A stretch of 62,550 nucleotides of DNA from a virus. Lineage: Duplodnaviria > Caudoviricetes. Shown piece after piece: positions 2,949 to 61,219 of this stretch (its first letter is position 1; each line of letters opens with the position of its first letter). The notes below the pieces were generated by a model, which was given only the letters and a program-made list of their open reading frames with translations, did no database searches and had not been told where the DNA came from. Location of the stretch: IMG/VR virus record IMGVR_UViG_3300020045_014212, positions 1 through 62,550 of that record; one strand, written 5' to 3'. The translations under genes and the position numbers were made by a program.

Positions 2949-2984
2949 CCCCATACCTGAAAAGGATGGGGTTTTGAGGTGAAA
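2949..2984 (+). promoter_or_regulatory. Bulged-A hairpin + U-tract + GGUGAAA element (copy 1)
   Basis: CCCCAT-A-CCT GAAA AGG-ATGGGG TTTTGAGGTGAAA. Confidence 0.75.
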
Positions 2985-3157
2985 TGAATTTCAACTACAA
3001 CAACCCCCGCGAGTTCAACCTTGATGATATGGAAAAAGATCTCATACTCAAGGTAATGAAAGTGACCGGAATCAAAATACAAGCCTGCAAAATACTCGGA
3101 ATAACCGACAGGTGTTTAAGGGATAAAATCAAAAAACATGGTATAAAATGGGAATAG
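2984..3157 (+). CDS. Fis-like helix-turn-helix protein (57 aa)
   Basis: Hand translation MNFNYNNPREFNLDDMEKDLILKVMKVTGIKIQACKILGITDRCLRDKIKKHGIKWE fits the Fis/NtrC C-terminal HTH pattern. Confidence 0.75.
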   Translation: MNFNYNNPREFNLDDMEKDLILKVMKVTGIKIQACKILGITDRCLRDKIKKHGIKWE

Positions 3158-3723
3158 CTTCACTCTCTGACTACAGGAAGGAATTTAAGTTTCATATAAA
3201 TAGAGGATTGTGTGGTTTGTCATGCAATGTAATTTTAAAAGGTAGGCGCAAATTTGATTTTGACGTATTTTTACCTTCTATTGGTTGCAATCTTCAGAGG
3301 AAACACGTCTGGACATTGGAACAAAAGCGGGAACTGATTTTTTCCATTATAAAGGGTGTTAATATTGGTAAAATAACACTTATTCAACACGAAACAAAAG
3401 ATGATACAATATATCAAGTTATTGATGGCAAACAAAGGCTGTCTGCTATAATTGATTTTATCTTTGGTGTGTTTGAAATAATCCTTTGTGATGGAGTGTC
3501 ATATACCTATTTCAATCTCCCTAAAGACATAAAACAGGAAATAACACTTTTCGATATAATCTCGGATATTGGATATTCTTATCACGATAGGCCAATAACA
3601 GATAAGGAAAAGATTGAATGGTTTGAACTCATAAATTTCACAGGAACACCACAAGATAAAGAACATCTAAATAAATTGAAAAATGGGAAGGATAATCATA
3701 ATAATTCTGACGGTATTCTTTGA
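3148..3723 (+). CDS. DUF262 (ParB/Srx-like) domain protein
   Basis: LQRKHVW...LIFSI and VIDGKQRL motifs; FELIN near the C-terminus. Confidence 0.8.
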   Translation: MGIASLSDYRKEFKFHINRGLCGLSCNVILKGRRKFDFDVFLPSIGCNLQRKHVWTLEQKRELIFSIIKGVNIGKITLIQHETKDDTIYQVIDGKQRLSAIIDFIFGVFEIILCDGVSYTYFNLPKDIKQEITLFDIISDIGYSYHDRPITDKEKIEWFELINFTGTPQDKEHLNKLKNGKDNHNNSDGIL

Positions 3724-3813
3724 TATAATCGTTATTTGGTGGTGCGAAGACAAAATACCGCCAATCTTTCCTTTTCTATTGTGTTGCGTCATAACAATAA
3801 TATCATTTCTAAG

Positions 3814-4425
3814 ATGTATGCCTCGTATATAAGAGTTTCAACCAAATCCCAGGATTTAGGACTTGACGCACAACGAAAAATGTGTGAAAAGTATAATCCT
3901 GTTATTGAATTTCAGGAGAAAGAAAGTGGCCGTAATAATAGTCGGCCAATCCTCGCGGAGGCCGTTAGGTATTGTAGGGAGAATGGAGCTATTCTGGTTG
4001 TGGCCAAACTTGACCGCTTAGGCCGAAATGCATGGTACATGCTGAAGTTAATAGAAGAAAGTGGCATAGATTTTGTATTTTGCGATAATCCATCCGCAAC
4101 AAAATTAACCATTGGCATTCTAGCTGTTATCGCAGATGATGAAGCGAGGAGAATTAGCGATAGAACTAAAGCTGCGCTGGCTGTTTTGAAGGAGCGCGGG
4201 GTTAAACTTGGAGGAACTATGAACCCTTCCGAAAAGGATAGGGAATTGGCCGTTATTGCGGTACGGGAAAAGGCAGAAAAGAACGAAAACAACGTCCGAG
4301 CTCGCGCCATTATCTCTTCCATTAAAGGGACATTAGAAGAAAAGGCTAACTACCTGAACGCACATGGATTTAAAACCTCTAGAGGAGGATATTTTTCACC
4401 GACACAAATAAGGAGATTGACATGA
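3814..4425 (+). CDS. Serine recombinase (resolvase/invertase family)
   Basis: YIRVST, Q-rich N-terminus, ESG...RP.L, LVVAKLDRLGRN, ISDRTKAAL...GVKLG; start moved to MYASYIRVS. Confidence 0.92.
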   Translation: MYASYIRVSTKSQDLGLDAQRKMCEKYNPVIEFQEKESGRNNSRPILAEAVRYCRENGAILVVAKLDRLGRNAWYMLKLIEESGIDFVFCDNPSATKLTIGILAVIADDEARRISDRTKAALAVLKERGVKLGGTMNPSEKDRELAVIAVREKAEKNENNVRARAIISSIKGTLEEKANYLNAHGFKTSRGGYFSPTQIRRLT

Positions 4426-4688
4426 AGCGACCATACTGTACGATAAATGGAATTAAATATAAGTTGAGATTAGTTACTGGAGTTTTAAGGTTTGAAAATT
4501 CAAATCCAACAAGGCCAGATTTAAATTCACTTTGGGCCTCGTATCAAAACGGAACAACTGGAATAAACGAACTTTTCGAATATTACTCTCGTTCTGGAAG
4601 TTCATTATCTTTAATGATAGAAAACTTTTCTAAATATAATGACAGGTTAAATAAGGATGATGTTAAAAAGTTTAGAGTTTATAAATAA
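4422..4688 (+). CDS. Hypothetical protein
   Basis: ATGA overlap. Confidence 0.6.
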   Translation: MKRPYCTINGIKYKLRLVTGVLRFENSNPTRPDLNSLWASYQNGTTGINELFEYYSRSGSSLSLMIENFSKYNDRLNKDDVKKFRVYK

Positions 4689-4716
4689 AATTAGGTTCAT
4701 ATAAATATAGAGCGAG

Positions 4717-4968
4717 ATGAATATCAACAATGAGAACCAGTATTACATACAACAGTCAATATATCGTTTTCTTAATGACGGATTCATAAAAGCGTGCAAT
4801 AATAATATTTTAGAGTTAACATCAATAGCTCCTGTAAAAATCATTATATCTTCCAATGGAATGGAGGCTGTAATCTATGAAGAATTTCAAGAGCGTATTG
4901 ACAAGATAAATTTTATACTTGAAGAATATAAGAAAGCAAACTATCCTGAACTTTTTAAATCGGAATAA
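4717..4968 (+). CDS. Hypothetical protein
   Basis: ORF in operon. Confidence 0.6.
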   Translation: MNINNENQYYIQQSIYRFLNDGFIKACNNNILELTSIAPVKIIISSNGMEAVIYEEFQERIDKINFILEEYKKANYPELFKSE

Positions 4969-4969
4969 A

Positions 4970-5323
4970 ATGAAAAAATTACTAATACTGCTATTACTTC
5001 CGGCTTGCACATTTAAAAGCGGAATAAAGAAAGAAACCGGAGTTATACTCGGAAAATCTTACATTCCGCGAACATCTTCAACTGGAATAGGCTATTCTTC
5101 AAGTGGCTCAACGGTTGTAACTTCTAGTTCAACTCCAGAAGAATATTCTACAATCATACACTGTTTCGAACACGATGAGACTTTTGTAACTCACCAAAGA
5201 GGTGTGTATGAAAAGGTATTTGAAAAAGATACTGTTGAGATTTCATACAAGGAAGTGATGTACAAAAAGGATAGTACACACTATGACTTTGATTTTATTG
5301 ACTGTAATAAAATTGGGAAGTAA
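4970..5323 (+). CDS. Putative lipoprotein
   Basis: Start at 4970 gives MKKLLILLLLPAC, a lipoprotein-type signal with Cys. Confidence 0.7.
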   Translation: MKKLLILLLLPACTFKSGIKKETGVILGKSYIPRTSSTGIGYSSSGSTVVTSSSTPEEYSTIIHCFEHDETFVTHQRGVYEKVFEKDTVEISYKEVMYKKDSTHYDFDFIDCNKIGK

Positions 5324-5559
5324 TGACAACCTCAATACTATTTATTCTATTCGGCCTTACATTGTTTGTATTCGGAGTGTTAATTCAATCCTCCGAAAAA
5401 GAAATGCAAAGAATCGTCAACCATCATGTAAATATGGCAAAGAAATCTCCAGACTCATATAATGAGGTTTGTTTTCTTTTCATTAGTGCTATGAGTAAGT
5501 ATTCGTACCACGAAAGATACACAGAATTTGTTCAACGCTTTTATGACCAGACGAGATGA
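5323..5559 (+). CDS. Small membrane protein
   Basis: N-terminal hydrophobic helix. Confidence 0.6.
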   Translation: MTTSILFILFGLTLFVFGVLIQSSEKEMQRIVNHHVNMAKKSPDSYNEVCFLFISAMSKYSYHERYTEFVQRFYDQTR

Positions 5560-5731
5560 TAGACCAAACAAACCCACCAGAATACATAACAAACGGCGAA
5601 GGTGTATTTGGTAAAGTTGCCAAGTGGGATGGCGACCTTTTCCTAGACGCCGATGAAGGAATGTGGATTGAAATTACAGATGCTATATCTCCGGCTACAA
5701 AAGAGGAGTATGATGATTATAAATCAAAGAT

Positions 5732-6238
5732 ATGATAGACACAAAATACAAAACCAACACCTTTGAAAACGAAAACCAATTCCAAGCGAAAGCAATCATT
5801 TTAATAAGTCAAATGTTTCCTCAATTAAGGGGAAAAGTTTGGCATACTAAAAATGAAGGGGAATTTGTTCGTAAAGCCATACAGGAAGGGAGTGGCTGGC
5901 GAGTAGAAACAGACGCGGAACTGGAACTTAGAAAAAAGGTTGAAGGTGGAAGGAATAAGGCACTTGGAATGGTTGCTGGAATACCGGATATTTTGATTCT
6001 ATACCGAGGATTATTGTACGGAATTGAATTGAAGCAGCCAAGTGGAGTGTTGTCTCCATCGCAAAAAGAACTACATGTAAACTGGAATAAGGATAGTGTT
6101 CCGGTGGTTACTTGCTACGAATTATTTAGCGTTTTATCTTACATAAGTGATATTGTCAACTATGGTTGTAGTAATAAGTCGGACGCAATCAGCAATATGT
6201 TTGACTGGTTTAAAAATCAACGTAGCGTGGTATATTAG
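5732..6238 (+). CDS. VRR-NUC domain nuclease
   Basis: E..FQ, G..AGIPD, IELK, LSPSQ motifs. Confidence 0.85.
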   Translation: MIDTKYKTNTFENENQFQAKAIILISQMFPQLRGKVWHTKNEGEFVRKAIQEGSGWRVETDAELELRKKVEGGRNKALGMVAGIPDILILYRGLLYGIELKQPSGVLSPSQKELHVNWNKDSVPVVTCYELFSVLSYISDIVNYGCSNKSDAISNMFDWFKNQRSVVY

Positions 6239-6286
6239 CCCCAACACGCCCACAAAAAACCAATCGTGTATGTATGTACCAAAAAC

Positions 6287-6316
6287 AAAAAAACCGGCCT
6301 AAATGGTCGGTTTTTT
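6287..6316. terminator. Bidirectional intrinsic terminator
   Basis: A7-CCGGCC TAAAT GGTCGG-T6 between convergent operons. Confidence 0.85.
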
Positions 6317-6335
6317 GATGTGCGAGCATGAATGA

Positions 6336-6740
6336 TTATTTAACATAAACAATCTTCATTTCAAGTGCGTCGGCTAAATCATGTTCAATTTTAGCACCTT
6401 TTGAATCCTTCCAATCAGGTAGCATGTGGATTTCGTTGCATGTTAATAGATGAGCAATTCCGATTTTCATATATTCTTCGTAGGTTCTTGTAATAATACC
6501 AGTTCCACTGCAAGTATGATGTATATTAGGAAAATAATTTTCACTTTCTTTACAATGCTCGCATCCGTAGCATTTATGTAAATTTAATGGATTTACAACA
6601 CTACCTTTTATAAAGGTATTTGTTTTTTCTGTTTCGGAGCAAAAATCTTTTAATAGTTTTTTCTCGTAATCCCCAAACTTTTTAATCGCTTCATCAAGCG
6701 GCAATCAGGTAATTTTTCCGGCAATGTAGATTTTTCTCAT
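6336..6740 (-). pseudogene. DUF4406/nucleoside deoxyribosyltransferase-like gene with an in-frame TGA at codon 12
   Basis: Reads MRKIYIAGKIT*LPLDEA...; C-terminal MLPDWKDSKGAKIEHDLA is typical of the family. Confidence 0.7.
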
Positions 6741-6852
6741 TTCGAATTTTTTTGAAATATATTATAGGATAATTGAAGAATTGATAAAATGCAAATGATT
6801 GATATAAGCCAATGCCTTGCAATTATTTGAAAGAATAGTTCGAGGTTTTCCA

Positions 6853-7053
6853 TTATTTATAAATTTGTCTAAAAGTTTCACCATCAACTGGTAATAATTC
6901 TCCATCAACCTCCACTTCATACCAAATCCTTTTCTGATATTTATCAATTTCAATATGCACAGTATCAACAATACCTTCGATTTCTCGATTGGTATTGTTC
7001 ATAAAAGATAGGACTTCGCCTACTTTGTGGTATTGAAGGTAGGTTAGCATCAA
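6853..7053 (-). CDS. Hypothetical protein
   Basis: ATGA overlap in operon. Confidence 0.6.
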   Translation of the reverse strand: MMLTYLQYHKVGEVLSFMNNTNREIEGIVDTVHIEIDKYQKRIWYEVEVDGELLPVDGETFRQIYK

Positions 7054-7451
7054 TAATATATCTTAGTTATCATTGGTTCGTTGTCAAGTGCGAGTGGTAG
7101 CAACCATTTCAAATTAGGATGAGACGGAAGATTGAATGGAATCGAACAAATCATAACAGTATCATCTTCCATTGTCTTATTTTGAAAGATGGAATCACTG
7201 AAGGCTCGGAAAAAACTTATTTCAAGTTCACCCTTCTCGAGACGAGCAAACAATTCCCAATCAGTAATAACAATGCCAGCCTCTTCAATAAATTCACGAA
7301 ACATAGCTTCAAAACTATCTTCGCCTTCATCTACATGACCCCCTATGCCTGTAAATAATTGCTGGTTGTCGTATTCAGGGAACAGTCTCTTCATCAACAA
7401 TACTTTCGAGCTGTCATTAGAAAACAAAAACCCTATTGATACTTTTGTCAT
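7050..7451 (-). CDS. Nudix hydrolase
   Basis: Nudix box GGHVDEGEDSFEAMFREFIEEAG. Confidence 0.9.
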   Translation of the reverse strand: MTKVSIGFLFSNDSSKVLLMKRLFPEYDNQQLFTGIGGHVDEGEDSFEAMFREFIEEAGIVITDWELFARLEKGELEISFFRAFSDSIFQNKTMEDDTVMICSIPFNLPSHPNLKWLLPLALDNEPMITKIYY

Positions 7452-12745: not shown

Positions 12746-12781
12746 TTTCACCTAAAAATCCCGCCTCGTTAAAGGCGGGAT
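12746..12781 (-). promoter_or_regulatory. Hairpin + U-tract + GGUGAAA element (copy 2)
   Basis: TCCCGCCT TTAACG AGGCGGGA TTTTTAGGTGAAA on the minus strand upstream of thyA. Confidence 0.7.
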
Positions 12782-31927: not shown

Positions 31928-31962
31928 TTTTCACCCGAAAACCCCGTCCTTTCGGTACGGGG
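31928..31962 (-). promoter_or_regulatory. Bulged-A hairpin + GGUGAAA element (copy 3)
   Basis: CCCCGT-A-CC GAAA GG-ACGGGG TTTTCGGGTGAAA. Confidence 0.75.
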
Positions 31963-32466: not shown

Positions 32467-32510
32467 TTTTCACCTCAAAACCCCGTTCCTTGTGAGGATA
32501 CGGGGTTTTT
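32467..32510 (-). promoter_or_regulatory. Bulged-A hairpin + GGUGAAA element (copy 4)
   Basis: CCCCGT-A-TCCT CACA AGGA-ACGGGG TTTTGAGGTGAAA. Confidence 0.75.
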
Positions 32511-33554: not shown

Positions 33555-33594
33555 TTTTCACCTCAAAATCCCGCAATCCAGTAAGGATGCGGGT
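33555..33594 (-). promoter_or_regulatory. Hairpin + GGUGAAA element (copy 5)
   Basis: CCCGCATCC TTACT GGA-T-TGCGGG ATTTTGAGGTGAAA upstream of the capsid gene. Confidence 0.7.
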
Positions 33595-48481: not shown

Positions 48482-50570
48482 CCGCCAAGGCGATTAATCT
48501 TGTGTCGGACTCGTTGAAGTCTGTGAATGGAACGAAAACAGATGAGCTTGACACGATGTATTCGTCCATTCCATATATTTGAACTTCGTAAATAATGCCT
48601 CCAACAACCCTTACTATCAACATTCTTCCAACCCTTGTCGAGTCATGCAACTTCAACGCTTTTATTTCTTTCATATCTTTTCTCCGTATAAGTTATAACC
48701 AGTACTTAAAACCTTATTAAGCCAATAATAGTAATCAGTGTAAAAGGTGTGATACTCCATTTCACACATAATCTTATAAAACCACCATTTTAAAGGCAGA
48801 TTCTTTCCAGTAACTTTTGACCATGCCATAATCTATATCTTTTCTACATTAATAATGACAGAATATTTCCTCAATTCAAATGATACAACCATGCACCCTT
48901 CCACAATACTCCCAATTCCCATATATGGCCCTCCGCAAGGGTCAATCGCTATCGCAGGGTCGCCAGTTACTCCTAAAGAAAAATAATCGTGCAATAGAAG
49001 TGTAGTATCGTCGATTTTTGTTATCGAGTAATGGTTGAATTTTTTTGTCATAATTCCTTCATTTTATTATTTCTCGCATAGTGCCAACCCGACCTCCAAG
49101 CATGATACGAGCCGGTTCCTTCAAAATAGGGATTTGTCCTAAACCCAGATATGTAAGAGGCAACTCCTTGGATGAATTCGTTGTAAATCATATCATTGGA
49201 AGTTTAGTTCCAGAAGGAGTTCCGAATTTTGCAACTTCGATTCCGGTTTCGGTGCTATACACAGTAGAAGGAAGTAATATCACGGGGTCTAATTCTTCCG
49301 CCCACTCCCACGAAAATAAAACAATGGAAGGATATTTGTCGTATGGCGTGTCGGTCATAGAGAGTCGAATTTGGATTCAAGAGAATTTATTTCTAATTCA
49401 AGTTTCGAAATTTCATTTTCAATCATAAAAAGAATTGATTCAGAAGAAATTTCAAATGTCCTTTCTGTCCTATCTTTTGATATTGAAACAGAATAGATTC
49501 CATAATCAACATCTTTATAATCCGATGCAAATAGCGAAAGTTCATTTTTCCTTTTGTAGGAGTCATTCAGTTCCAACTGAATATTTTCGGCCTCTCTGAA
49601 TTTTTGGAAGGTCATGCTGAGCCAAATTTATTTGATACAAAATTATCTATGTCTGTCGGTTCAAATCCCAACTCCTCTAACCTTTCCTTATCCGCACCAG
49701 AGACAATAGAAGGAGAAACGTGAACATACATTTCGTCATGTTCACAAGATGTTGGATATTTTTCGTTTGAATATTTCAAAAATATCTGTAGTGCTTCGAT
49801 TAGTTCTTTCATACTCCAAAAGATTTTTCGATTTCTAAAATTTGTACCGATACCAAAGATATTTGTTTCGCTATGGCCTCCAGTAAAATGTCCGGTCTGA
49901 GATAAAAAGAAAATGTAGTGGAATAAGTTATGGCGGAGTCTCCCGTGTATGATTCTGCGTCTAACTTTATTGCATTCTGGACTTTTTTCAATTCCTGAAA
50001 TTTAGCTTCCAGCGCAACTAATTCTCGTACTTGTTGGATTTGGGATTGTGTCATTCTTCATGAAAAGATTTAGCTTTGGAAATAAGAACCATGCTGAAAA
50101 TAACTGAAGCGGAAAAAATTATTAGAAGGATAATGTCTCGGGTTGTCATAGGTACGTTCGATTGATTTTAGCTTTAATATTCAAAATCTTTCCACGTAAA
50201 CGAGAAAGATTAATTTCGATTTCATTTAAAACATTAACACACCTTAACTTGAAGATTATACCTTCGTGATTAACCTCGATGTATTTTTGTTTTGAAATTG
50301 AGTGTTTGGCGTTAAGATAGTTTAAAAAATCTTTTTCTAGTTCCGCCAATTCTTTTTCTAGTCCGGTGCGATTTGTCATTAGAAGAAAGTATGATGGCCG
50401 CTAGGCCAAGTATTTAAAGATTTTCGTCCGTCAATATTATTGGGATGGCAAATATAGGTAGGTTTCGGGTCGTTTCCAAATTTATTTGGGATATATTTTT
50501 TCATAATCCCTAATCCAACAAATCCGGCTATCATTAGAAGGAAAGTGAGGCCATTCGGAATCTCAGACAT
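48468..50570 (-). other. Run of short minus-strand hypothetical ORFs (48468-48674, 48833-49051, 49355-49615, 49612-49812, 49809-50054, 50146-50379, 50379-50570)
   Basis: Co-oriented, abutting or ATGA-overlapping ORFs of 63-86 aa. Confidence 0.65.
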
Positions 50571-51088: not shown

Positions 51089-52128
51089 ACGTATAAATTT
51101 TTACTATTCCATAATTCCCCTATTCATAATCTATTGATAATCAACAAACGCAATAGAAATTTTTGACATTCATTGTGTTTTGTAATGTATATGTGATTGA
51201 TTTTCAAATGGTGGAAATCTTGGTAGAATCTTTGGGTGTTTTTGAAATTGGTTCAAATTCCAAGATTCCAGTCTTGAAGTGGCTTAATATGAAATCGGAA
51301 ATATTTGTGGGTGTAGTACCGAGCACCCCACCGGCCTGAAAAGACGTGGGATTCACTTCCGCTACCCTACCCTACTCACACACGCACACGCATATACACA
51401 CGCATACACACGACACATGCACCATGCACACAAATACCCACAATGCCAATTCCCGCGATTTTGCGCCACATTTCAGCCCATCAAACCTATTTCCGATACA
51501 TTGTGTCAACCATACAATTTGCGGTCAAATTTGGCCATGTTTTTGCCCTATTTGACAAACCACAAATGACCGTATGTAGTATGTCAATATCCACCATCGT
51601 AATATGTACCCATATTCAATGAATTTATCTATGTTAGTTATTTGATATGTTAATTCAAATCATATAATAGTTGTTACGAAATAGCTATATATATTAATAG
51701 CCGATTATCGACAATTTAAACAAATTAATAATATCATACCTAATAAATATAATTTGGCCTACCTAAATAGTTAAAATCCATTAACATTTACCCACGATAC
51801 CCCACAATTAGCCGGAAATAGCCCAAATTTCGATTCTAACACGTTATGATACCACACTATTCGAAAATCATTTAACGGGCTAGAATAAAAATAATACATT
51901 TTTCGATACATAAATCATTATAGGACATAGGATTGAATCCTGGAAATTATCCTAATATGAGAATTATTCCTAATACGTTTGGGCCTACATTACGATCTTT
52001 TCTAAATTATAGATCTTTTGGTATGGGAATAACCATCATTAACAAAACAATAACACCCCAATAATTTGGAAATGTCGGGAAATAGAACTATAACGCACAC
52101 GTCCACCGAACACATGAGGATATTATAC

Positions 52129-52205
52129 ATTAACATCTAATTAAGAAAATAGTTCTCACAATTACCGATTATTGACCTATATTTGCACTACAAAACACAA
52201 ACGAT
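52129..52205 (+). promoter_or_regulatory. Early promoter unit
   Basis: TTAACATCTAATTAAGAAAATAGTTCT...TATATTTG (52178-52185)...ACAAAACACAAACGAT-ATG. Confidence 0.75.
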
Positions 52206-52370
52206 ATGTACACAGCCGAAACAATACAGGAAATGAGAAATTGGGCCTATGATTGTGCAATTGACCGCGAAGACCTATTAAATATGCGTAGGGCTTCCGA
52301 CGAATCAATTATACGCTGGGTATCAAAAAATTATGATGGCGGGATTGACGCATTCCTTAAAAACATTTAA
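52206..52370 (+). CDS. Small hypothetical protein (54 aa)
   Basis: MYTAETIQEMRNWAYDC...NYDGGIDAFLKNI read by hand. Confidence 0.7.
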   Translation: MYTAETIQEMRNWAYDCAIDREDLLNMRRASDESIIRWVSKNYDGGIDAFLKNI

Positions 52371-52979
52371 TCATTAACCTCAAAAAATCAAATATATGAA
52401 AATCTCAAAAATCAACCAAACCACTACTATTGTAATAGAAAACAATGTAGCCGAAATGCAGGTATTATTAAATGCATTAGAATGTTATAATTTGTCATAC
52501 TTTAGGGAACACAACACACGCACCCACCGGATATATTAGTTATTTTGACATTAACATCTAGTTAAGAAAATAGTTCTTGTTTGGAACGTCCCTATATACT
52601 ACATTTGTGACGTGGTAAGGATACCACAATCGCCAATTTCGGCATAAAACATTGAAAATCAACGAGTTATGAAATTTCAAATAGAATACAATCTCGAAAC
52701 AACTATTTACCGCGATTATAACGGTCAAATAATTGAACCTTCCGATATTGATAAACTGATGTTTTCAATATTTGGCGATTGTGCCGACAATGTAACTGGC
52801 ATAGCTACTGCCACATATACAAAAGAAACATCTATTATACACACATTTACTTCCACTAATATGAAACAGGCCGAAGTTTACGCGATTGAATATTGTGGTA
52901 AATATGGCGTTAATGCTGCCAACATATTTGTATCAAAAATCTAATTTAATCATTAACCTCAAAAAATCAAATATATGAA
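52365..52979 (+). repeat. 36-bp perfect direct repeat covering translation leader and start (52365-52400, 52944-52979)
   Basis: ATTTAATCATTAACCTCAAAAAATCAAATATATGAA twice. Confidence 0.9.
52669..52944 (+). CDS. Hypothetical protein
   Basis: Follows promoter TACATTTG at 52600-52607. Confidence 0.65.
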   Translation: MKFQIEYNLETTIYRDYNGQIIEPSDIDKLMFSIFGDCADNVTGIATATYTKETSIIHTFTSTNMKQAEVYAIEYCGKYGVNAANIFVSKI

Positions 52980-53163
52980 CACCGAACAAAAAGAATTTAT
53001 CAATAATGCAATCCGCGAAATTAATGATTCAATTGGCGAAGTTATTGCAAATGTTCCGTATGAAGTTTACGAACAAAATGCGAATCAATTCTCAACTATC
53101 AATATGGCAGTGGGGAAATTGTTAGGTTTTATGAGTGAATATTCAAAAATAAATAATATTTAA
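52975..53163 (+). CDS. Hypothetical protein
   Basis: Starts within the repeated leader; followed by a terminator. Confidence 0.65.
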   Translation: MNTEQKEFINNAIREINDSIGEVIANVPYEVYEQNANQFSTINMAVGKLLGFMSEYSKINNI

Positions 53164-53195
53164 AAATAATCCCTACTTCTGTAGGGATTATTTTT
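53162..53195. terminator. Intrinsic terminator
   Basis: AAAAATAATCCCTAC TTCT GTAGGGATTATTTTT. Confidence 0.85.
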
Positions 53196-53460
53196 GACCT
53201 GACATATTATAAAATTTTAGATATGAATTGACCTACGGCATACTATCTTCTATTGATTGAAATTTGGGCTATTTTGCGACCTATTCCTGCCCCTAAAATT
53301 AAAATCTGATAGTTAGGTATGCCTGAAAAATTGATACCCTAGAAACGAACGCCACGCCATAGTATAAAATCTTCTAATATTATCGCCATAGGGAACATAT
53401 TAGATGAAATTATCTATAAAAATAAAATGATAGATAAATTCTTCTAATATGACCAGATAA

Positions 53461-53488
53461 AAATAATCCCCGATTCATCGGGGATATA
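53461..53488 (-). terminator. Intrinsic terminator
   Basis: AAAATAATCCCCGA TTCA TCGGGGAT after gene 53491..53712. Confidence 0.8.
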
Positions 53489-53490
53489 TC

Positions 53491-53712
53491 TTAGAAATTT
53501 AAAATTTCTGATTTTTTCGATTGCCAAACTTTATTTATTTCAATTAGTGCATTATAGTCGTTACCTACCTGTTTTATCGCTGCCATTGTAGCGTTATGCA
53601 TGTTCGTTAGCGCGGCAATCAATTGCGCCGACATACTACCTTCCAATAGTAAAACTGGGTGTTTCAGGTTATACATTGTGTTGGCGTTTTCGAAGTGTTG
53701 TGCGTGTGTCAT
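53491..53712 (-). CDS. Hypothetical protein
   Basis: Own promoter (TAATTTTG at 53729-53736) and terminator. Confidence 0.7.
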   Translation of the reverse strand: MTHAQHFENANTMYNLKHPVLLLEGSMSAQLIAALTNMHNATMAAIKQVGNDYNALIEINKVWQSKKSEILNF

Positions 53713-53841
53713 ATCTGTTAATTTTTATCAAAATTACGGTGAGATGTGTCGAAGTGGAGTTATCTAATTGTTAATGTATAAAAATAATTTTTAGTAATTT
53801 GTTTTTGATTTGATAAATAATTTTCTTACATATGATTATAT

Positions 53842-53872
53842 AAAAATAATCCCTAAATTAATAGGGATTATA
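53842..53872 (-). terminator. Intrinsic terminator
   Basis: AAAAATAATCCCTA AATTAA TAGGGATTA. Confidence 0.8.
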
Positions 53873-53874
53873 TA

Positions 53875-54120
53875 TTAATCAGCCAGATGAATATTAGAAT
53901 TAATAAAATCTCTAACTTCTTCTAATGTGTTAATTTCTTTCCTACACGATAACCCACTACACTCCAACACATAAAAACCACCCAACCTATCATTAACCTT
54001 CGATACTTCGTATGGCAATGTTATATTGCCATTATCTGCCTGATAGTTATTTTTACTATATTTCTTATGTGTTACTATGTTGCCATTGGCATCTGTTCCT
54101 GTTGGTATTGTAAATTTCAT
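53875..54120 (-). CDS. Hypothetical protein
   Basis: Leader resembles the 36-bp repeat. Confidence 0.65.
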   Translation of the reverse strand: MKFTIPTGTDANGNIVTHKKYSKNNYQADNGNITLPYEVSKVNDRLGGFYVLECSGLSCRKEINTLEEVRDFINSNIHLAD

Positions 54121-54145
54121 AATATTTGATTTTTATGGTTGAGGA

Positions 54146-54493
54146 TTAATTCTTTTCGACAGCTGGCTGATATGGCATGTAGTCGCTATTATCTCCATTT
54201 ATTAAATACATATATTCGTCGCAAAACCTTTGAACTTTCAAATTATTCACATAACGACTATCATTTTTTAACCTGTTGATTTTTTCGCAAAAATCATTAT
54301 TAGTGTAATTTTTTGCGCCAGTTATATAATCATTTGACCATATCTTACATATCTCCAATATGCCTGCGCCATCTACTGAAAGACTGTAGGCACTACTGCT
54401 ATTTCCGTTCCATATTGGGGACATAATATCAACAACTAATGACATTGCGTCATTAAGAAAACAGGCCCAAATTTCTGTATTAATTTTTTTCAT
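54146..54493 (-). CDS. Hypothetical protein
   Basis: Follows promoter TACATTTG at 54527-54534 (minus). Confidence 0.65.
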   Translation of the reverse strand: MKKINTEIWACFLNDAMSLVVDIMSPIWNGNSSSAYSLSVDGAGILEICKIWSNDYITGAKNYTNNDFCEKINRLKNDSRYVNNLKVQRFCDEYMYLINGDNSDYMPYQPAVEKN

Positions 54494-55840
54494 ATTTGCG
54501 AGTTTTGTGCGGGTTAATTCCCGCTACAAATGTATGCCATACCAACACGATAAACAAGTACTATTTCCTTAATCAATTGTTAATGTCAAATTACCTAATG
54601 GATAATAGGAACACACGCACACGAATAACCAAAAATCTGACACTACCAAATTTTTATACCACAATAACAATAGAATAACATTTGACCTAAAATTATGACA
54701 ATTAAATGACAATCTAAATTAGGAAATTACAACTATCACAGGAATAGGACGTTATAAATATGAAAATAGGTTATTTTTAAATTTTGACCTCAAACATACT
54801 CCGGATACATAGTTATCGCTACGAAATAGAAGGGCTGCAATCGCCTAAAAATAGCCCTAAAATTGATTTGTCAATCTGGCATGAAAATTTGACATAGACT
54901 ATATTAATACTTCCAATGTCAGTGCGCTTAATAACGAAACAATAACAATAAAAAATTTGGAAGTGTCAAATATGGTGCGGCATGTGCCAAATTGACAAAA
55001 CCAAATTTTTCGCTACCTTTAACAAATCATTAATTCATATTAGAACAAATTATAAACTGTTATTAGAATGATAGATAAATCTTTTTAATATGGGGTATCT
55101 TTAACAATTTTTTAACAAAATAAATTTGTTTGTTTCGAATACCAACAGGATCAATTAGTTATGTATTGTGTGAATTGTAATTTTTAAATCTGACCAGATC
55201 TCAACATTTGAATAGTAGCGTATCATACCGGAATAGATGGCGGGAATTTGGCTAAAAATAGGCATAGAAACGATTTGCCAGTATGTCACACTTTTTATGA
55301 CGGATTGACATACACAAATACTAATACTTCTAATGTTTGGATACTAATAACAAAAGAATAACAGCGGAAAATTTGTTATTGTCAATCTGGCAATTTTTAT
55401 GACAAATTGACATTTCCAAATAAAATGGAAGGATTAACAATAGAATAACAAAAATGCTACGGATTAACAAAAGGATAACAGACGGAAATTTGGAAAAATC
55501 AAACCTATTGAGAATCAATCTGGTATGTATGGGATAATATGTAATTTTTATTCTAGACACGATCTTGGCTGTCTGATACATTTGTGTTGTCGGCATTATT
55601 GAGGTCAAATTTCGGGCTAAAAATGGGCAAGGAATTGATTATAGCGCAAACGATATGGAACTAATAAGGACTATTTTTGAACGTTAACAAATGAATAACT
55701 CCGTTTTATCTTCTAATGTCGTATATCGCGCTCCTGTTGGGCGACATATTATGAAAATTGACATTAACATACGGTTAAGGAAATATGTCTTGGAATACAA
55801 CACAACACGACCTACATTTGTATAACAAAACACAAACGAT

Positions 55841-56002
55841 ATGAACACATTAATGCTGACACAATTAACCACACAAACACTTGAAATAATGATTTGTGAG
55901 CTGACCGCTAAAATAGATTCATCTAATTCAAAAACACGCAAAGATATGTTGTGGAAATTTGTATATGAAATTAACGAAGTTATCGCCTGTAGAACAAAAT
56001 AA
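55841..56002 (+). CDS. Small hypothetical protein (53 aa)
   Basis: After promoter TACATTTG (55813-55820) and the shared ACAAAACACAAACGAT leader. Confidence 0.65.
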   Translation: MNTLMLTQLTTQTLEIMICELTAKIDSSNSKTRKDMLWKFVYEINEVIACRTK

Positions 56003-56227: not shown

Positions 56228-56268
56228 CCCCACAATCTAACAAGATGTGGGGATTTGGAGGTGAAAAA
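56228..56268 (+). promoter_or_regulatory. Bulged-A hairpin + GGUGAAA element (copy 6)
   Basis: CCCCACA-A-TCT AACA AGA-TGTGGGG ATTTGGAGGTGAAA. Confidence 0.75.
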
Positions 56269-56278
56269 ATTAACGAAT

Positions 56279-56524: not shown

Positions 56525-56529
56525 AAATT

Positions 56530-57069
56530 ATGTACTATCCAACTTCCGAAAAATTAGCCAGCGAAAATTACCCGTATGGCTTCAGATTAAAAACAACAAA
56601 ATACGACTGGCTGGAGTTCCGTAAGGGTAAAGGTTTTCGCCATGCGTCGCAAACAATTAACCCGAAAAATACCAGATTAAATGCCGAAAAATATGGCACA
56701 TACTACGACATACTTCTACTAACACACAACGAAGAAGGCCATGTAAAATGCCATGCATGGAGCTTAAACGGAAGGGACGAAATAAATAGGGCTTGTGTTG
56801 CTATGTCGGCTAATTTCGATTGCTTTTCAGTAGATGAGGTAAGGGACATATACGAAAGAATTTGGTTTGGTTTGGCTGTTGATATGAAAGCCACTTGCGT
56901 ATATGGTGGAGCTAAAATTGCCGACATTAAAAGCTTATATGTTGAATCGATGGAACTAGCAAACATTGGAAAAGAAACAGGTGTTAATTTGTTTGCAAAA
57001 ATCAAAATAGACACATCTGCTGTTGATAGTTTTAAACCTGAAAATTTTAATCCCTTCGGCACGATATGA
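56530..57069 (+). CDS. Hypothetical phage protein
   Basis: NYPYGFRLKT...EF..GKGFR...QT.NPK. Confidence 0.7.
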   Translation: MYYPTSEKLASENYPYGFRLKTTKYDWLEFRKGKGFRHASQTINPKNTRLNAEKYGTYYDILLLTHNEEGHVKCHAWSLNGRDEINRACVAMSANFDCFSVDEVRDIYERIWFGLAVDMKATCVYGGAKIADIKSLYVESMELANIGKETGVNLFAKIKIDTSAVDSFKPENFNPFGTI

Positions 57070-57194
57070 CACACGACCTCCAATTCCTATTTAACGCCGG
57101 ATTTTTCCGTCAGGTTATCCACTACTATTGCGAGACTGGGAAACAGATAAACATTGAACAAATCAAATCTTTTCACATTTTAAATTAAACAAAA

Positions 57195-57452
57195 ATGAAA
57201 ATAACATACAGGCCACATACAAGCCACAATCCTTTTTGCGACATAGTAGAAGGACAGATTGACACAGATACTATGATAACTTTCTATAAAGTGTTGGAAA
57301 GTGGATTGCAAGGCTGCGAAGTCTATATTGGTGAAAATTACAATGTAGGCAGTAAGAAAAAATCTCGCTCGTGGAATTATGATACTTCTACTATCCCAAA
57401 AAAATACTACGAAAATTGGGTTAAATTAAAAGATTATTACAATAACCTATAA
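57195..57452 (+). CDS. Hypothetical protein
   Basis: ORF in operon. Confidence 0.65.
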   Translation: MKITYRPHTSHNPFCDIVEGQIDTDTMITFYKVLESGLQGCEVYIGENYNVGSKKKSRSWNYDTSTIPKKYYENWVKLKDYYNNL

Positions 57453-57467
57453 AATTATACCAATTAA

Positions 57468-57498
57468 CCTGCCACAGTGCAGGATTTTTGGGTGAAAA
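57468..57498 (+). promoter_or_regulatory. Short hairpin + GGUGAAA element (copy 7)
   Basis: CCTGC CACAGT GCAGG ATTTTTGGGTGAAA; ATG at 57509. Confidence 0.65.
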
Positions 57499-57508
57499 CC
57501 ATATACAA

Positions 57509-57688
57509 ATGAAAACAGAACAGATTCACATATCGAGAATAATTGCAGGTGATACTATTTTGCATAATGGCAAAGATACAACAGTATGTAAAAAAGATAT
57601 TAAAAACGATGGCTTTAATGGAATAACGATATTTGGGGATAGTTATCACCTCGGTAACAAATTAGTAACAAGGATACTTTATGTATAA
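57509..57688 (+). CDS. Small phage protein
   Basis: HIS.I.AGDTI.H.G...TVC..DI...F.G.T.FGDSY. Confidence 0.7.
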   Translation: MKTEQIHISRIIAGDTILHNGKDTTVCKKDIKNDGFNGITIFGDSYHLGNKLVTRILYV

Positions 57689-57884
57689 CAACACACAAGC
57701 TCGCCAAGTTGCTGCTAACTGGCATGGAGGCCAAAATTCAGCCCTATATTCATTTGCTTCTACTGGCACGATTGATAGGGGGATAGAAGACTATAAAACC
57801 GAAATTTCAGATTGTAGGGCTTCTGGAAGGGAAAAACGGAAATTAGAAAAATTATTCATTTATCTTTGTTGGTGTATTATTTAA
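57681..57884 (+). CDS. Small phage protein
   Basis: WHGGQ.SALYSFASTG motif. Confidence 0.7.
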   Translation: MYNNTQARQVAANWHGGQNSALYSFASTGTIDRGIEDYKTEISDCRASGREKRKLEKLFIYLCWCII

Positions 57885-57949
57885 CACCTCAATAACAAAA
57901 ATAAATTAGGAATCGAAAAGATTATTTCATACCTTTACAAAAAAAACAC

Positions 57950-58207
57950 ATGGAAAGCACACTAAAATTAGATTTGCAAAAAATGGCATTGTATCAGATT
58001 GCCAGACTAATTAGGAAAGACTGGCTCAATGTTAGCCCACACGCAAAACCATACCTTAACGCAATGTTAGGACTGGAGAAGGTATCCGATAGCTACGGTA
58101 GCGATAATGGCAAATCAATAGTACTATATTTCCTTTCCAATGCAGCCACATGGCGAGGAGATAATGCGAAAACTATTAAAACACATTTAAAATCACTTGT
58201 AAAATAA
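57950..58207 (+). CDS. Phage protein
   Basis: IA..IR.DW...A.PYL.AM..L....YG.D...IV.YFL.NA..WRG. Confidence 0.75.
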   Translation: MESTLKLDLQKMALYQIARLIRKDWLNVSPHAKPYLNAMLGLEKVSDSYGSDNGKSIVLYFLSNAATWRGDNAKTIKTHLKSLVK

Positions 58208-58218
58208 CCAAAAATTAA

Positions 58219-58255
58219 CCCATACTCCTAACGAGATGGGATTTTTGGGTGAAAA
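58219..58255 (+). promoter_or_regulatory. Bulged-A hairpin + GGUGAAA element (copy 8)
   Basis: CCCAT-A-CTC CTAAC GAG-ATGGG ATTTTTGGGTGAAA. Confidence 0.75.
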
Positions 58256-58420
58256 TCTAAATATATGTTCGAACTAAAAACAATCAACCCACTTCACTCG
58301 CAAACATTTACCTTCTATTCATACGAGGAAGCGGTGGATAATTTCAAAAGGAGTGTGTTCGAATTTAAGGGATTCGGGAGTGTGGTTTTGAAATGTGAAG
58401 GCAACATAATATGTGAGTGC

Positions 58421-58444
58421 AAAATCCTTGAATGAGGATTTTTT
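58421..58444. terminator. Bidirectional terminator
   Basis: AAAATCCTT GAAT GAGGATTTTTT. Confidence 0.65.
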
Positions 58445-58500
58445 ATTTTAACATATGTGGAAAATTATAATTTATTATAAATTGTAATATGAATAAATAT

Positions 58501-58660
58501 AAAAATGTTCGAACCTGAAGCTCGTCTTATGGCTGTAGCGATTAACGCTCGGCGGAAGCTGGCCTCGGTTCGAACATATTGAATAATGTTATTGGAAGGG
58601 CAATCCTATCGCGGTATTGCTGCGCTGTGGCTGCTGTTCGCATGGCTGCCCTTCCAACAC
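58501..58660 (-). ncRNA. Candidate ~160-nt two-domain ncRNA with its own promoter
   Basis: Two 11-bp perfect stems (58505-15/58567-77 and 58592-602/58647-57), GC-rich, TTTG-N21-TATATTTG directly upstream, U5 after the last stem. Confidence 0.65.
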
Positions 58661-58947
58661 TACAAATATACGTCACTATCTGTTAGGAATCCAAATTTAT
58701 TTTGTTAACGAATAGTTATTACTCTTCCAATGTGATAATAAGGAGCCGCGCACGCGATATACAACAAAAAAATTGGATTGCAAAATCATTAACAAACATT
58801 AACAAATACAACTTCCAATGTTTAATTTTAGGACGAGGATACGTTAACAGATCTTTAACAAAAAAACACGAAAATAAATTAGGAAAGTGTCTTGTGGGGT
58901 TGTATATTTGCATTGTAATTAATCACTAACAACAAAAAACAAAAAAC

Positions 58948-59907
58948 ATGAAGTATTTTATCTTGGCTTTTGCGCCACACATCAAATTAATGTCGGACGG
59001 TACAGTTTGGAACATTACCGACAACAAACAATTGGAAATAGTAGAAGGCAAAGTTACCTTCACTCCCACAGAAAACTACGGCAAAACCATGAAGGCCGGA
59101 GTTGAGTGTACCGTACCTGTTGCAGCCCTTACAAAATTGGCTGACACCGAAGTTGACGGAAAAACAGGCTGGATTGATAGCGTAGAAAAGAAGGAACCTA
59201 CACCAGCGCAATTGGCACGCAAGGCCTTCAATGCACGCAAAAAGGAACTGGAGGGTATTATCGAAAAAAATGCTGCTATCCTTGCCGACTTTGACGCAGG
59301 AACACCTGAATTTGACGGTGCAAAAGTAGCTATCAAAACAGCCCGCGCCGAATTGGCTACATTAGTGCCACCTACTGTTGAAAAGGTTGAAAAGGTAGCT
59401 AAGGTGAAAAGTCAACCGGAAATTGATAGCGAGGCCAATATCGAAGTGTTATTTGCCGCTATGAATGCCGCAAAAGAAGCGTACAAATTGGCAATTGATA
59501 CGCACAATGCAACCGAAGGCTTCGGCAAATATGGTAGCAAAGCTACTGGAGAACGCGAAAAAGTTGCAAGTTTCGAAATGACCTACGAAATAGCTCAGGC
59601 AATCAGGGAATTTGCATCAAAAAATGATCTTTCACCTGCAGCAATGATAACGGCAATGGTTGAGGCAAAGGTTATACCTTCCGAAATTTCAACTCAAGCG
59701 CTCAACAAATACCTGAATTATCGCCAATTCCGACTGAAAAGGGATGAAACAAACATATTCATTCCTTTGAATGCAGAATATTACAATTGTTTTGCTGAGG
59801 AAAAAGTTGCGGAAATTCCGGCACTGGCCGCAGCACATAGGGCAACTGGAACTGCAATAACTACTTTGTGGGATGGCAAAATTAAGACAGCCACAGCCAC
59901 AGCATAA
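58948..59907 (+). CDS. Ala/Lys/Glu-rich hypothetical protein, monocistronic
   Basis: Promoter TATATTTG at 58903-58910; terminator at 59914-59940. Confidence 0.8.
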   Translation: MKYFILAFAPHIKLMSDGTVWNITDNKQLEIVEGKVTFTPTENYGKTMKAGVECTVPVAALTKLADTEVDGKTGWIDSVEKKEPTPAQLARKAFNARKKELEGIIEKNAAILADFDAGTPEFDGAKVAIKTARAELATLVPPTVEKVEKVAKVKSQPEIDSEANIEVLFAAMNAAKEAYKLAIDTHNATEGFGKYGSKATGEREKVASFEMTYEIAQAIREFASKNDLSPAAMITAMVEAKVIPSEISTQALNKYLNYRQFRLKRDETNIFIPLNAEYYNCFAEEKVAEIPALAAAHRATGTAITTLWDGKIKTATATA

Positions 59908-59913
59908 GAAATT

Positions 59914-59940
59914 AACCCCAAGCAATTGGGGTTTTTCTTT
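59914..59940 (+). terminator. Intrinsic terminator
   Basis: AACCCCAA GCAA TTGGGGTT TTTCTTT. Confidence 0.85.
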
Positions 59941-60205
59941 TATCTTACATATTTGAAAAAAAATAAACTGTAATTAGATTGATATAGGATTGTTCCTATA
60001 TGCCATTCTACGACCTAAAATTATTTTGTGTAGGTAGGTATCATTTTAATTTTGAAGGTCAGGAATCGACTGCCATGTGGCAAGGAATTGATTTTTCTAA
60101 TGATAGGTATATGTGGTGGGGTGGGTTGATGTTAACAAAACTATAACAATTATTTTTTTGTTTTTTGCTATTATTAGTTGTATATTTGTGAAACAATTGG
60201 GAGAT

Positions 60206-60724
60206 ATGAAATTAAAGATAGAAATTAAAAACCGCTGGACCGGAAAAATTCTATTTGAATTTGAAAGTGAAAATAATAATGTGAAAAATACGTTATTGGA
60301 AGCAATAAAAAGCAACGCCGACCTTAGCGATGCCAACCTTCGCAACGCCAACCTTCGCAACGCCGACCTTAGTAACGCCGACCTTAGCGGGGCCAACCTT
60401 AGTAACGCCGACCTTAGCGGGGCCAACCTTAGCTGGGCCAACCTTCGCGGGGCCGACCTTAGCGGGGCCAACCTTAGCGGGGCCGACCTTAGTAACGCCG
60501 ACCTGTCATATTCAAAAACAGATAAACGATATATACAAGTTTCGTGCATTGGTTCATCAAAAAGATTAACCACATATTGCTTTGAAGATGACATTGTATT
60601 ATGTGGCTGTTTCAAAGGGACATTATCTGAATTTGAGGCGAAAGTAAAAGAAACGCACGAAAATAACGAACAATATTTGAAAGAATATCTCGGTTTTATA
60701 AATTACATAAAATCTTTAAAATGA
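60206..60724 (+). CDS. Pentapeptide-repeat protein with DUF5758-like C-terminus
   Basis: A(D/N)LSxA repeats; IGS..R.T...CGCF.GTL.EFE..V..TH; promoter TATATTTG at 60181-60188. Confidence 0.9.
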
Positions 60725-61011
60725 CAAGCGACCAACTAAAAAAAGAAGGCGAACAAATTTCCGGCATGATGTGGGAACACTTCGGGGATTTATATTATTT
60801 GTTTCCGTCTGGTAGGGTTGAGCAACACTTCAAGATTACTGCTGTAGGATTGCAGGAAAAGATTGAAGATTTGGCGGAGGATGTGGTTGCGTCAGGGAAA
60901 AGGGAAACATTGCAAAAATATAGAGATTATCAAAGTCTTTATAACAGTTTATTTGAAAAAGTGTATGATTTGAGTTATACGCCAAATGATAAAGATTATT
61001 TTGTGTTATAA
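60721..61011 (+). CDS. Hypothetical protein
   Basis: Overlaps the upstream stop. Confidence 0.6.
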
Positions 61012-61180
61012 AAATATTAAAGGAGAGTAATCGAAAATCCTTAATAGAGTAGAATATATTGTTAATTCGAAAATCGGGAGATATGCGAAACAAATCAAGC
61101 CCTACAAGGCAACAACCGAATGCGAGCGGAATCTCAGCCACATTATATATTTATTAATTCTCCGGCCAGGCCACTCATCA

Positions 61181-61219
61181 CCCGCTACCTTTAACAAGGA
61201 GCGGGTTTTGGAGTGAAAA
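61181..61219 (+). promoter_or_regulatory. Bulged-A hairpin + GAGUGAAA element (copy 9)
   Basis: CCCGCT-A-CCT TTAACA AGG-AGCGGG TTTTGGAGTGAAA; ATG at 61229. Confidence 0.7.

Follow-up and report, generated by a model that had tools for sequence, protein, structure and literature searches.

Phages of several groups place small repeated signals between their genes. In T4-type phages, the promoter-early stem-loop (PeSL) cassettes are small composite intergenic elements, present in many copies per genome, in which a G/C stem-loop serving as terminator or attenuator is joined to an expression signal for the next gene; as set out in the reports that describe them, they are concentrated among small genes of unknown function, and spread by recombination has been proposed (PMC2839356, PMC4122927). 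Cluster K mycobacteriophages carry the start-associated sequences (SAS) and extended SAS (ESAS), asymmetric conserved words in near-constant orientation just 5' of the starts of unrelated genes, with an inverted repeat just upstream in about half of the SAS copies; in the account of these words their function is given as unknown, with a role in translation suspected (PMC3203893). T7 has structured intergenic RNase III sites on the mRNA strand of both early and late operons, consisting of two helices split by a loop or bulge. The 3' hairpin left after cutting stabilizes the upstream message (PMC3867540). Ordinary intrinsic terminators are GC-rich stem-loops followed by U residues, 3' of a gene and on its strand. 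Here we describe nine elements in a tailed phage (Caudoviricetes), the IMG/VR virus record IMGVR_UViG_3300020045_014212, all 62,550 bp of which make up the window that we analyzed. They resemble each of these systems in the traits just listed, with the second helix and a stabilizing role of the hairpin putative here, work like a mixture of them and are a member of none.

Each element consists of a GC-rich hairpin, a short T-run, a short G-rich spacer and the word GTGAAA. Departures from the known systems are clear in each case. PeSLs, in the reports cited above, have a consensus host sigma-70 promoter, whereas the nine elements lack the corresponding TAnnTTTG box and also lie inside conserved late operons. 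The SAS are described as a different, 13-nt word of actinobacteriophages with a ribosome-binding site at normal spacing (PMC3203893); here, by contrast, the inverted repeat takes the form of a terminator-like GC hairpin with a U-run at its foot, the Shine-Dalgarno (SD)-like word is mis-spaced and the host group is SD-blind. Compared with ordinary intrinsic terminators, the elements have 3–5 U and then G-rich sequence, a bulged A in six of nine copies and an invariant GUGAAA at a fixed distance, and they are operon-internal, directly before the next start codon. We tentatively read the nine as one transcript-level cassette, a leaky terminator or 3'-end-forming hairpin fused to a leader, and hold this reading at somewhat short of an even chance; the phage lineage appears to have gained the cassette and amplified it.

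A first-pass annotation of this DNA had claimed nine copies of the element, and all nine are found at the positions it gave, which mark the hairpin start for copies on the + strand and the low-coordinate end of GTGAAA(A) for those on the - strand. The fixed-register word GGRTTTNNNNGTGAAA (GGR-TTT-NNNN-GTGAAA) has 9 matches on the two strands, versus a mean of 0.04 in 100 shuffles (largest 1). A looser regular expression, a T-run followed by RGTGAA, finds 20 sites, and an adjacent upstream hairpin (-7.4 to -15.8 kcal/mol) is present at the nine alone; likewise, among 93 candidates from a scan for a hairpin plus T-run, the nine are distinct as CC(C)...(G)GG stems with the tail. A covariance model built from the nine gave 28 matches. 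The copies score 38.2–55 bits, e4 read on its reverse strand, as a hairpin followed by T6, comes next at 25.7 bits, and the other 18 stay below 16 bits; this gap in score indicates exactly nine copies. All nine lie on the coding strand between co-directional genes, as annotated, and the motif is not equally common on non-coding strands. The copies are listed below with folding z-score (z), covariance-model score (bits) and the distance from the G of GTG to the ATG.

e1, 2949..2984 (+): 6 bp, bulged A, 3 bp, GAAA loop; TTTT, GAG, GTGAAA; z -4.3; 47 bits; the ATG of a 57-aa Fis-type helix-turn-helix (HTH) gene overlaps the last A; GTG to ATG 5 nt; upstream stop 157 nt off
e2, 12746..12780 (-): perfect 9-bp hairpin; TTTTT, AG, GTGAAA; 44.1 bits; between an SSB-like gene (E 3.7e-7) and thyA (thymidylate synthase, E 1.4e-98); GTG to ATG 15 nt
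e3, 31929..31962 (-): 6 bp, bulged A, 2 bp, GAAA loop; TTTT, CGG, GTGAAA; 48 bits; 5' of a 146-aa gene, with the tail sheath gene next; GTG to ATG 20 nt
e4, 32468..32505 (-): 6 bp, bulged A, 4 bp; TTTT, GAG, GTGAAA; 55 bits; immediately 3' of the major capsid gene (capsid-like PHROGs)
e5, 33556..33593 (-): 6 bp plus 3 bp, bulged U on the 3' arm; A, TTTT, GAG, GTGAAA; z -5.3; 49.1 bits; between the head protease (E 2.4e-28) and major capsid genes; GTG to ATG 16 nt
e6, 56228..56266 (+): 6 bp, bulged A, 4 bp; A, TTT, GGAG, GTGAAA; 45.7 bits; first element in a long rightward operon of small genes; GTG to ATG 18 nt
e7, 57468..57497 (+): short 5-bp hairpin; A, TTTTT, GG, GTGAAA; z -1.8 (the weakest); 38.2 bits
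e8, 58219..58254 (+): 5 bp, bulged A, 3 bp; A, TTTTT, GG, GTGAAA; 51.1 bits; upstream stop just 11 nt 5' of the hairpin
e9, 61181..61218 (+): 6 bp, bulged A, 4 bp; TTTT, GGA, GTGAAA, the sole copy with an A preceding GTGAAA; z -5.6; 50.5 bits; GTG to ATG 16 nt

The anatomy proposed in the first-pass annotation held up. A single bulged A on the 5' arm is present in six of nine copies (e1, e3, e4, e6, e8 and e9), as claimed, at a depth of 5–6 bp; in e5 the bulge is a U on the 3' arm, and e2 and e7 are bulge-free. As a baseline, the 39 terminator-like hairpins in 246 kb of Bacteroidota chromosomal DNA, collected for another purpose, include 1 with a single-base 5' bulge. The short U-tract followed by (G/A)GUGAAA was also described correctly, the T-run being 3–5 nt and the word before TGAAA being GG in eight copies and AG in one. 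As the T-run lengthens over this range, the G-rich spacer shortens, and the distance from GTGAAA to the foot of the hairpin stays constant. Stem sequences vary with pairing kept, again as noted: in a model-fitted alignment, the basal helix is 89% paired and four of its six pairs have changed on both sides, with a covariation score of 0.25 versus 0.076, reached by 0 of 500 shuffles in an alignment that leans towards the model. Stem pairing thus appears to be under selection. The loops are not conserved across the nine copies, and conservation is far stronger in the tail than in the stem. Folding z-scores range from -1.8 to -5.6, with seven of the nine copies matched by at most 1 in 200 shuffles. 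By their flanks, the copies fall into the sub-families e5/e9, e7/e8 and e1/e3/e4.

Folding the copies with their flanks revealed a second layer of pairing that the first-pass annotation had not noted: an outer helix, formed between the 5' flank and the U-run plus spacer, that encloses the hairpin. The mean energy gained by flank–tail pairing is -6.7 kcal/mol, compared with -4.5 when the flanks are shuffled and -4.1 when they are drawn at random from the genome; 0 of 300 resampled means reach it. Moreover, each tail prefers its own flank over the other eight (p = 0.03), and side-by-side reading shows the left flanks to be degenerate mirror images of the conserved right side. Inner and outer helices together span 14–19 bp, broken by an internal loop and the bulge. 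The outer helix is missing from e2 and weak in e7. A permissive Rfam scan covering the whole window returned a single match with E no higher than 1, and it does not coincide with any element. The 217-nt spacer 5' of e9 contains, at 61020-61055 (+), a sub-threshold Rfam match to DUF805b (26.7 bits, gathering 35.6, E 0.0023).

The record, 37% G+C and rated 100% complete, is that of a contractile-tailed phage. Scans against PHROG and Pfam identified structural genes for tail sheath, tape measure, baseplate hub, Mu-type portal, large terminase, head protease and a capsid-like protein, along with thymidylate synthase, SSB-like, helicase, primase/polymerase, cytosine methylase and resolvase genes; among 34 phage records, the nearest named capsid relatives (24–27% identity) come from phages of Bacteroides, Cellulophaga and Tenacibaculum. 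In Flavobacterium johnsoniae, as reported, the -7 element of promoters is TAHHTTTG, and the T and A of the Bacteroidota -7 box are near-invariant (PMC6847099). This box is enriched in the phage genome (99 versus 56 expected) and lies 3–60 nt 5' of 14 of 121 ATG-called genes (our own crude open reading frame (ORF) calls), mostly as TATATTTG; leaders after the phage's own TAnnTTTG boxes are 4–48 nt long. SD-like words at -18..-7 precede just 14 of the 121 genes, and genome-wide there is an adenine peak of 51–60% at -14..-10. This scarcity of SD words and the adenine peak agree with ribosome profiling of F. johnsoniae, for which over-representation of adenines at -14 to -11 and positive determinants at -3, -6, -12 and -13 are described (PMC6847099). 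Judged by the phage's promoter and translation-start signals, its host is of the Bacteroidota type.

Within this genome, e5, e4 and e3 punctuate the order protease – capsid – 155 aa – 146 aa – sheath, a stretch that begins, after an ordinary terminator, at a TATATTTG box 9 nt 5' of the protease gene. The SSB-like gene upstream of e2 has its own promoter box. The remaining five copies, e6, e7, e8, e9 and e1, sit among small function-unassigned genes, punctuating a long rightward run that crosses the record ends. In six of the nine copies the hairpin starts 11–26 nt past the upstream stop codon. At the record ends themselves (window 1-442 and 62218-62550), open frames exit on both sides, in DNA that forms a pentapeptide-like repeat; the record probably represents a circular or permuted genome that was opened within a pentapeptide-repeat gene. 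The Pfam scan also contains a separate pentapeptide-repeat match. The Fis-family HTH protein whose start lies inside e1 (57 aa, HTH_8, E 2.8e-8; 2984-3157, +) may be a regulator; behind it come a 191-aa gene and a resolvase-type recombinase.

The first half of each element has the makings of a terminator: all nine are GC-rich stem-loops on the transcribed strand, 3' of a gene, with 3–5 T abutting the stem. The ordinary terminators of the phage (~6294/6316, 53167/53190 and 59908, and also 53485, 53870, 34936 and 19756) lack the bulge and tail, as the first-pass annotation had said; they have 5–7 T, often with an A-run upstream. T-tail scores are 2.5–3.8 for the elements versus 3.2–5.0 for these terminators, and of the nine only e2 and e7 are recovered by a generic terminator scan that requires 5 or more T in 8 and disallows bulges. 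The low scores and low recovery fit read-through, and the hairpin with its U-run is probably a sub-canonical, leaky intrinsic terminator.

The second half lies where a leader would be expected. The elements had been placed 0–15 nt before a start codon, which is correct when counted from the end of GTGAAA; counted from the G of GTG, the distance is 15–20 nt in eight copies and 5 nt in e1. At least four A occupy -14..-10 in six of the nine element-led genes, versus 33% of all genes. We also considered whether GTG opens a mini-ORF whose translation is coupled to that of the gene behind it and rejected this, as the GTG–ATG offsets modulo 3 (2, 0, 2, 2, 1, 0, 2, 1, 1) are inconsistent in frame.

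To place the element among other phages, we searched at several levels of similarity. Megablast of 6 kb of the window against GenBank phages gave no match, and blastn of one element against a phage collection gave three short chance-level matches; a capsid-based search reached 35–40% identity, with two loci each in IMG/VR and in metagenomes. The best syntenic relative, a complete 55.6-kb IMG/VR record with 40% capsid identity and the same gene order, has 45- and 56-nt spacers around its capsid gene, with no hairpin in them, indicating that the cassettes would be a lineage-specific gain not required by this module. Elsewhere in this relative, at 50366, 50813 and 53326 (+), are two looser look-alikes, hairpins with TTTT and then GG..AAA words before ATGs, and one terminator of the same stem design (6 bp, bulged A, 3 bp and GAAA loop) with T6 and no tail.

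An exact 17-mer search of IMG/VR found 12 stretches, about the chance number by a rough estimate, with a GC hairpin abutting the T-run in five of them. We then scanned IMG/VR with a degenerate pattern (ACCC, a gap of 12–24 nt, and the 16-mer plus one A) and with tail-permuted controls; as the patterns force ACCC and GGR, the hairpin counts are to be read as a contrast between true and control tails and not as absolute frequencies. The true tail gave 34 stretches, 26 of them distinct, and a strong hairpin closes at the motif in 12 of the 26 and is offset by 1–3 nt in two more. With permuted tails, hairpins were found at 0 of 11 sites for TGGAAAA and 0 of 10 for GGTAAAA (one offset hairpin in the latter set). 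Shifting GTGAAAA one base farther left 6 of 30 sites with a hairpin, and one base nearer 1 of 3, demonstrating that the 4-nt register is preferred and not exclusive. Among the 14 hairpin-bearing contigs, 11 are SD-poor (an SD-like word before <25% of genes) and seven also have the adenine peak, with few genes per locus. In all, at least 13 other phage contigs carry the composite. Elsewhere there is one strong copy per record (10 other virus records; 33 loci), with varied neighbors: the copy follows a major head protein or methylases, or precedes small terminase genes or a DnaD-like loader. In another phage, at ~71-120 (-), the GAGGTG of the tail doubles as the 5' arm of a further hairpin (GAGGTG...CACCTC) with T5 behind it, giving tandem terminator-like hairpins.

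Host chromosomes differ. A sample of 401 Bacteroidota genomes contains the linear word 52 times, versus 29 for a backwards control, and none of 30 matches examined has the hairpin. The exact 17-mer occurs at no fewer than 120 bacterial loci (33 of the 80 listed are Bacteroidota), with a GC hairpin abutting the T-run in at most ~6 of 120. On these counts we rejected a host-chromosome feature. The composite of hairpin, U-run and RGGUGAAAA is instead phage-borne, recurrent mainly in Bacteroidota-type phages and amplified nine-fold here. The first-pass proposal of a phage-specific RNA device, for which a controlled read-through terminator, a processing or stabilizing site and a translation enhancer had been named as options, is supported in part: the element is strand-specific, operon-internal, absent as a composite from the host chromosomes examined and without an Rfam match, and it looks like a signal that phages carry and that acts on the transcript. 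It is not private to this phage, as single copies recur in others. The literature that we covered, with supplements and subscription journals outside that coverage, holds no description of the motif.

The cassette might operate as follows. Host RNA polymerase would start at TAnnTTTG promoters and transcribe long operons. On reaching a cassette, it would make a GC hairpin with just 3–5 U behind it, where a fraction of the polymerases would stop; the stopped transcripts would carry a protective 3' hairpin while the remaining polymerases read through. In the read-through RNA, the 5' flank would pair with the U-run and G-rich spacer to form the outer helix, leaving the A-run of GUGAAAA single-stranded ~10–14 nt before the AUG, where the SD-blind ribosomes of Bacteroidia favor adenines. 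Each cassette would thereby fix how strongly the genes before and after it are expressed relative to each other, and the gene behind it would receive a standard, insulated leader. What the sequence shows directly is the anatomy, copy number, strand and register of the elements, their operon-internal position with no host promoter box, the coincidence of the A-run with the genome-wide adenine peak and the restriction to phages. Termination, its leakiness and the read-through, the leader function, a trans-acting factor and the outer helix in vivo are all things that we infer from sequence.

Several points weigh against this interpretation. The outer helix is weak copy by copy (individual fractions 0.02–0.88), its support being collective and statistical. 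The adenine enrichment in six of nine leaders is modest (a binomial estimate of ~0.04 against the 33% background), and e1 breaks the leader rule outright, its ATG overlapping the element in GAAATG with zero A at -14..-10. From the syntenic relative, the cassette appears dispensable for the protease–capsid–sheath module, and a terminator at e5 would put capsid mRNA below protease mRNA, which is odd unless it is very leaky or the protease gene product doubles as the scaffold. Neither termination nor translation rules explain the invariant GUG at a fixed distance from the hairpin or the bulged A retained through compensatory changes in the stem. Furthermore, hairpins of other phages have the tail even when there is no gene behind it: an ORF starts 14–19 nt behind the tail in about three SD-poor composites, a scarcity that ties the tail to the hairpin rather than to a start codon. 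The invariant GUG, the kept bulged A and the gene-less tails together hint that a trans-acting factor, a protein or ribonuclease of phage or host, recognizes the folded element or the DNA ahead of polymerase.

We weighed the leaky-terminator cassette against five other explanations. An unlikely one, with a real if minor share of the probability, is that the element is a processing or stabilizing site, a substrate of a double-strand- or structure-specific endoribonuclease (host RNase III or a phage enzyme); were the internal loop cut at its 3' side, the upstream mRNA would end in a protective 3' hairpin and the downstream mRNA would begin with a defined short leader. Flank–tail pairing above chance, the degenerate mirroring of the conserved right side by the left flank, and a total of 14–19 bp with internal loop and bulge all suit such a substrate. 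T7, with its late sites included, has about ten RNase III sites in all, and the copy number of the elements and their spread across early-like and late operons resemble the T7 layout. Loops and bulges limit RNase III to cuts in one strand, such cuts yield stabilizing 3' hairpins, and the T7 early precursor has five processing signals, according to the account of these sites (PMC3867540). However, the T7 sites have longer helices and RNase III has no need of a U-run; an invariant T-run right at the foot of a GC-rich stem is what marks a terminator, and it points to termination. The helices here are also shorter than two full turns, the outer one is poor in e2 and weak in e7, and the loops are not conserved. 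It is more doubtful that the elements are composite terminator-promoters of the PeSL kind, with GGR-TTT-NNNN-GTGAAA as a phage-specific promoter core read by host polymerase with an unrecognized phage factor, starting near GTGAAA. A conserved 16-nt block followed by an ATG at 15–20 nt does resemble the leaders behind TAnnTTTG boxes, e5 would supply the capsid gene with a start of its own, e7 and e8 fit 7 of 8 positions of the -7 box, and phages do spread such cassettes, as the PeSL reports describe (PMC2839356, PMC4122927). Yet the T and A of the -7 box are missing from seven of nine copies, and TTTG is missing or out of register in several. No TAHHTTTG box lies 3–60 nt upstream of any of the nine element-led genes (versus 14 of 121 genes), and a host sigma-A promoter inside the element was rejected, as the TAnnTTTG box is not found there. 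Nor did a six-frame search of the phage find a sigma-70 region 2 or region 4 domain, or the PHROG and Pfam annotations leave a protein both large and unassigned enough to be a polymerase; the phage has a separate, true family of promoter cassettes, and elsewhere the composite often has no gene behind it.

Factor-controlled termination or pausing for timing, in which a protein reads the bulged-A hairpin as RNA or GTGAAA as DNA ahead of polymerase and switches the nine sites between stop and read-through in a cascade along the operons, seems to us improbable. It would account for a bulged A in six of nine copies despite compensatory stem changes (against the 1 in 39 baseline), and for a GTG–hairpin distance that is constant while the T-run varies from 3 to 5. 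Hairpin-stabilized pauses have a U and then a G ~9–10 nt past the hairpin, and the geometry is alike. Five of the sites are spread along a single long rightward operon, at whose start lie early-type promoter cassettes, and a small Fis-type HTH gene stands directly behind e1. On the other hand, GUGAAA lies downstream of the release point and as RNA can have no part in the decision, freely varying loops argue against loop-reading proteins, the Pfam scans (one of which lists 25 of its 38 matched families) show no antiterminator, NusG-like or RNA-binding family, and single copies at module borders in other phages are unlike a cascade. Least probable is a translation signal, very unlikely in our judgment, in which GAGGUGA pairs with the 16S anti-SD, for example on bS21-lacking ribosomes, for privileged initiation in an SD-blind host. 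The complementarity is there: 5–8 nt of the tail match the anti-SD region in eight of nine copies (GAGGUGA or GGAGGUGA in four, AGGUGA or GGGUGA in four more), the anti-SD core being CCUCC (PMC10783764). F. johnsoniae ribosomes lacking bS21 are reported to use an extended SD (PMC9976891, PMC13000457), and 11 of the 14 other phage contigs with the composite are SD-poor. The spacing does not follow. In the rpsU SD, described as the sole one known to function in F. johnsoniae, the core occupies -11..-15 (PMC13000457), whereas the GAGG of the elements is 4–5 nt further upstream in eight copies, ending 15 nt or more ahead of the AUG, and is too close in e1 (-8..-5). We rejected SD function on this distance, in keeping with the doubt that the first-pass annotation had voiced and with the presence of SD-like words before just 14 of 121 genes. 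In addition, start codons are often not behind the tail in other phages, the outer helix would sequester the word, and no bS21 gene is among the Pfam families seen in the phage. There is a slim chance, finally, that the element is a selfish or structural repeat, a terminator-like palindrome spread by recombination in the manner of PeSLs or miniature inverted-repeat transposable elements (MITEs) and serving chiefly as a site of module shuffling, with little regulation of its own. The syntenic relative without the element, the shared-flank sub-families, the five copies amid unknown small genes and the single copies scattered over unrelated phages would fit, but the uniform coding-strand orientation and a tail conserved much above the stems argue for selection on a transcript-level function.

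A second repeat family, at 52036-55850, consists of ~50-nt blocks that have a TA(T/C)ATTTG box behind them and then a conserved A-rich leader and an ATG (as at 52109-52158, 52530-52579 and 55743-55792, with an inverted copy at 54552-54599 and box-to-ATG parts at 52174-52214 and 55809-55849); it occurs in both orientations among very small ORFs and resembles early promoter/operator cassettes; in this phage, it is this family that is truly PeSL-like. Two AT-flanked hairpins, nearly identical and bordered on either side by A5/T5 (53157-53195 and 53837-53879), and a related third (53459-53485), located within 327-nt and 162-nt gaps, look like bidirectional terminators between small early cassettes. 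CA-rich low-complexity DNA of the ACACACGCA type is present at 51340-51442 and 54611-54627, inside the poorly coding 50.9–55.3 kb region.

How phages of Bacteroidota time and balance their gene expression is little known, and their hosts have unusual promoters and ignore the SD. An improbable but far-reaching extension of the findings is that the composite (a hairpin, often with one bulged base, U4–5 and RGGUGAAAA) is a punctuation signal of many Bacteroidota-type phages, read by a dedicated trans-acting factor, which could be an antiterminator, a ribonuclease or a hidden anti-SD of bS21-lacking ribosomes. If so, it would be a private expression channel for phage messages in SD-ignoring hosts, and its nine-fold multiplication here would run a whole programme. 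At ~36 nt the signal is easily mutated, and one genome offers nine natural variants, with single copies in other phages. These could be used to gauge termination and read-through by Bacteroidota RNA polymerase, to define what makes a good leader and to fish for a factor that binds the bulged hairpin and GUGAAA. Should the tail be recognized in trans, the element would be a new phage-specific control element; should it not, it would be a natural insulator-plus-leader part for Bacteroidota genetics.

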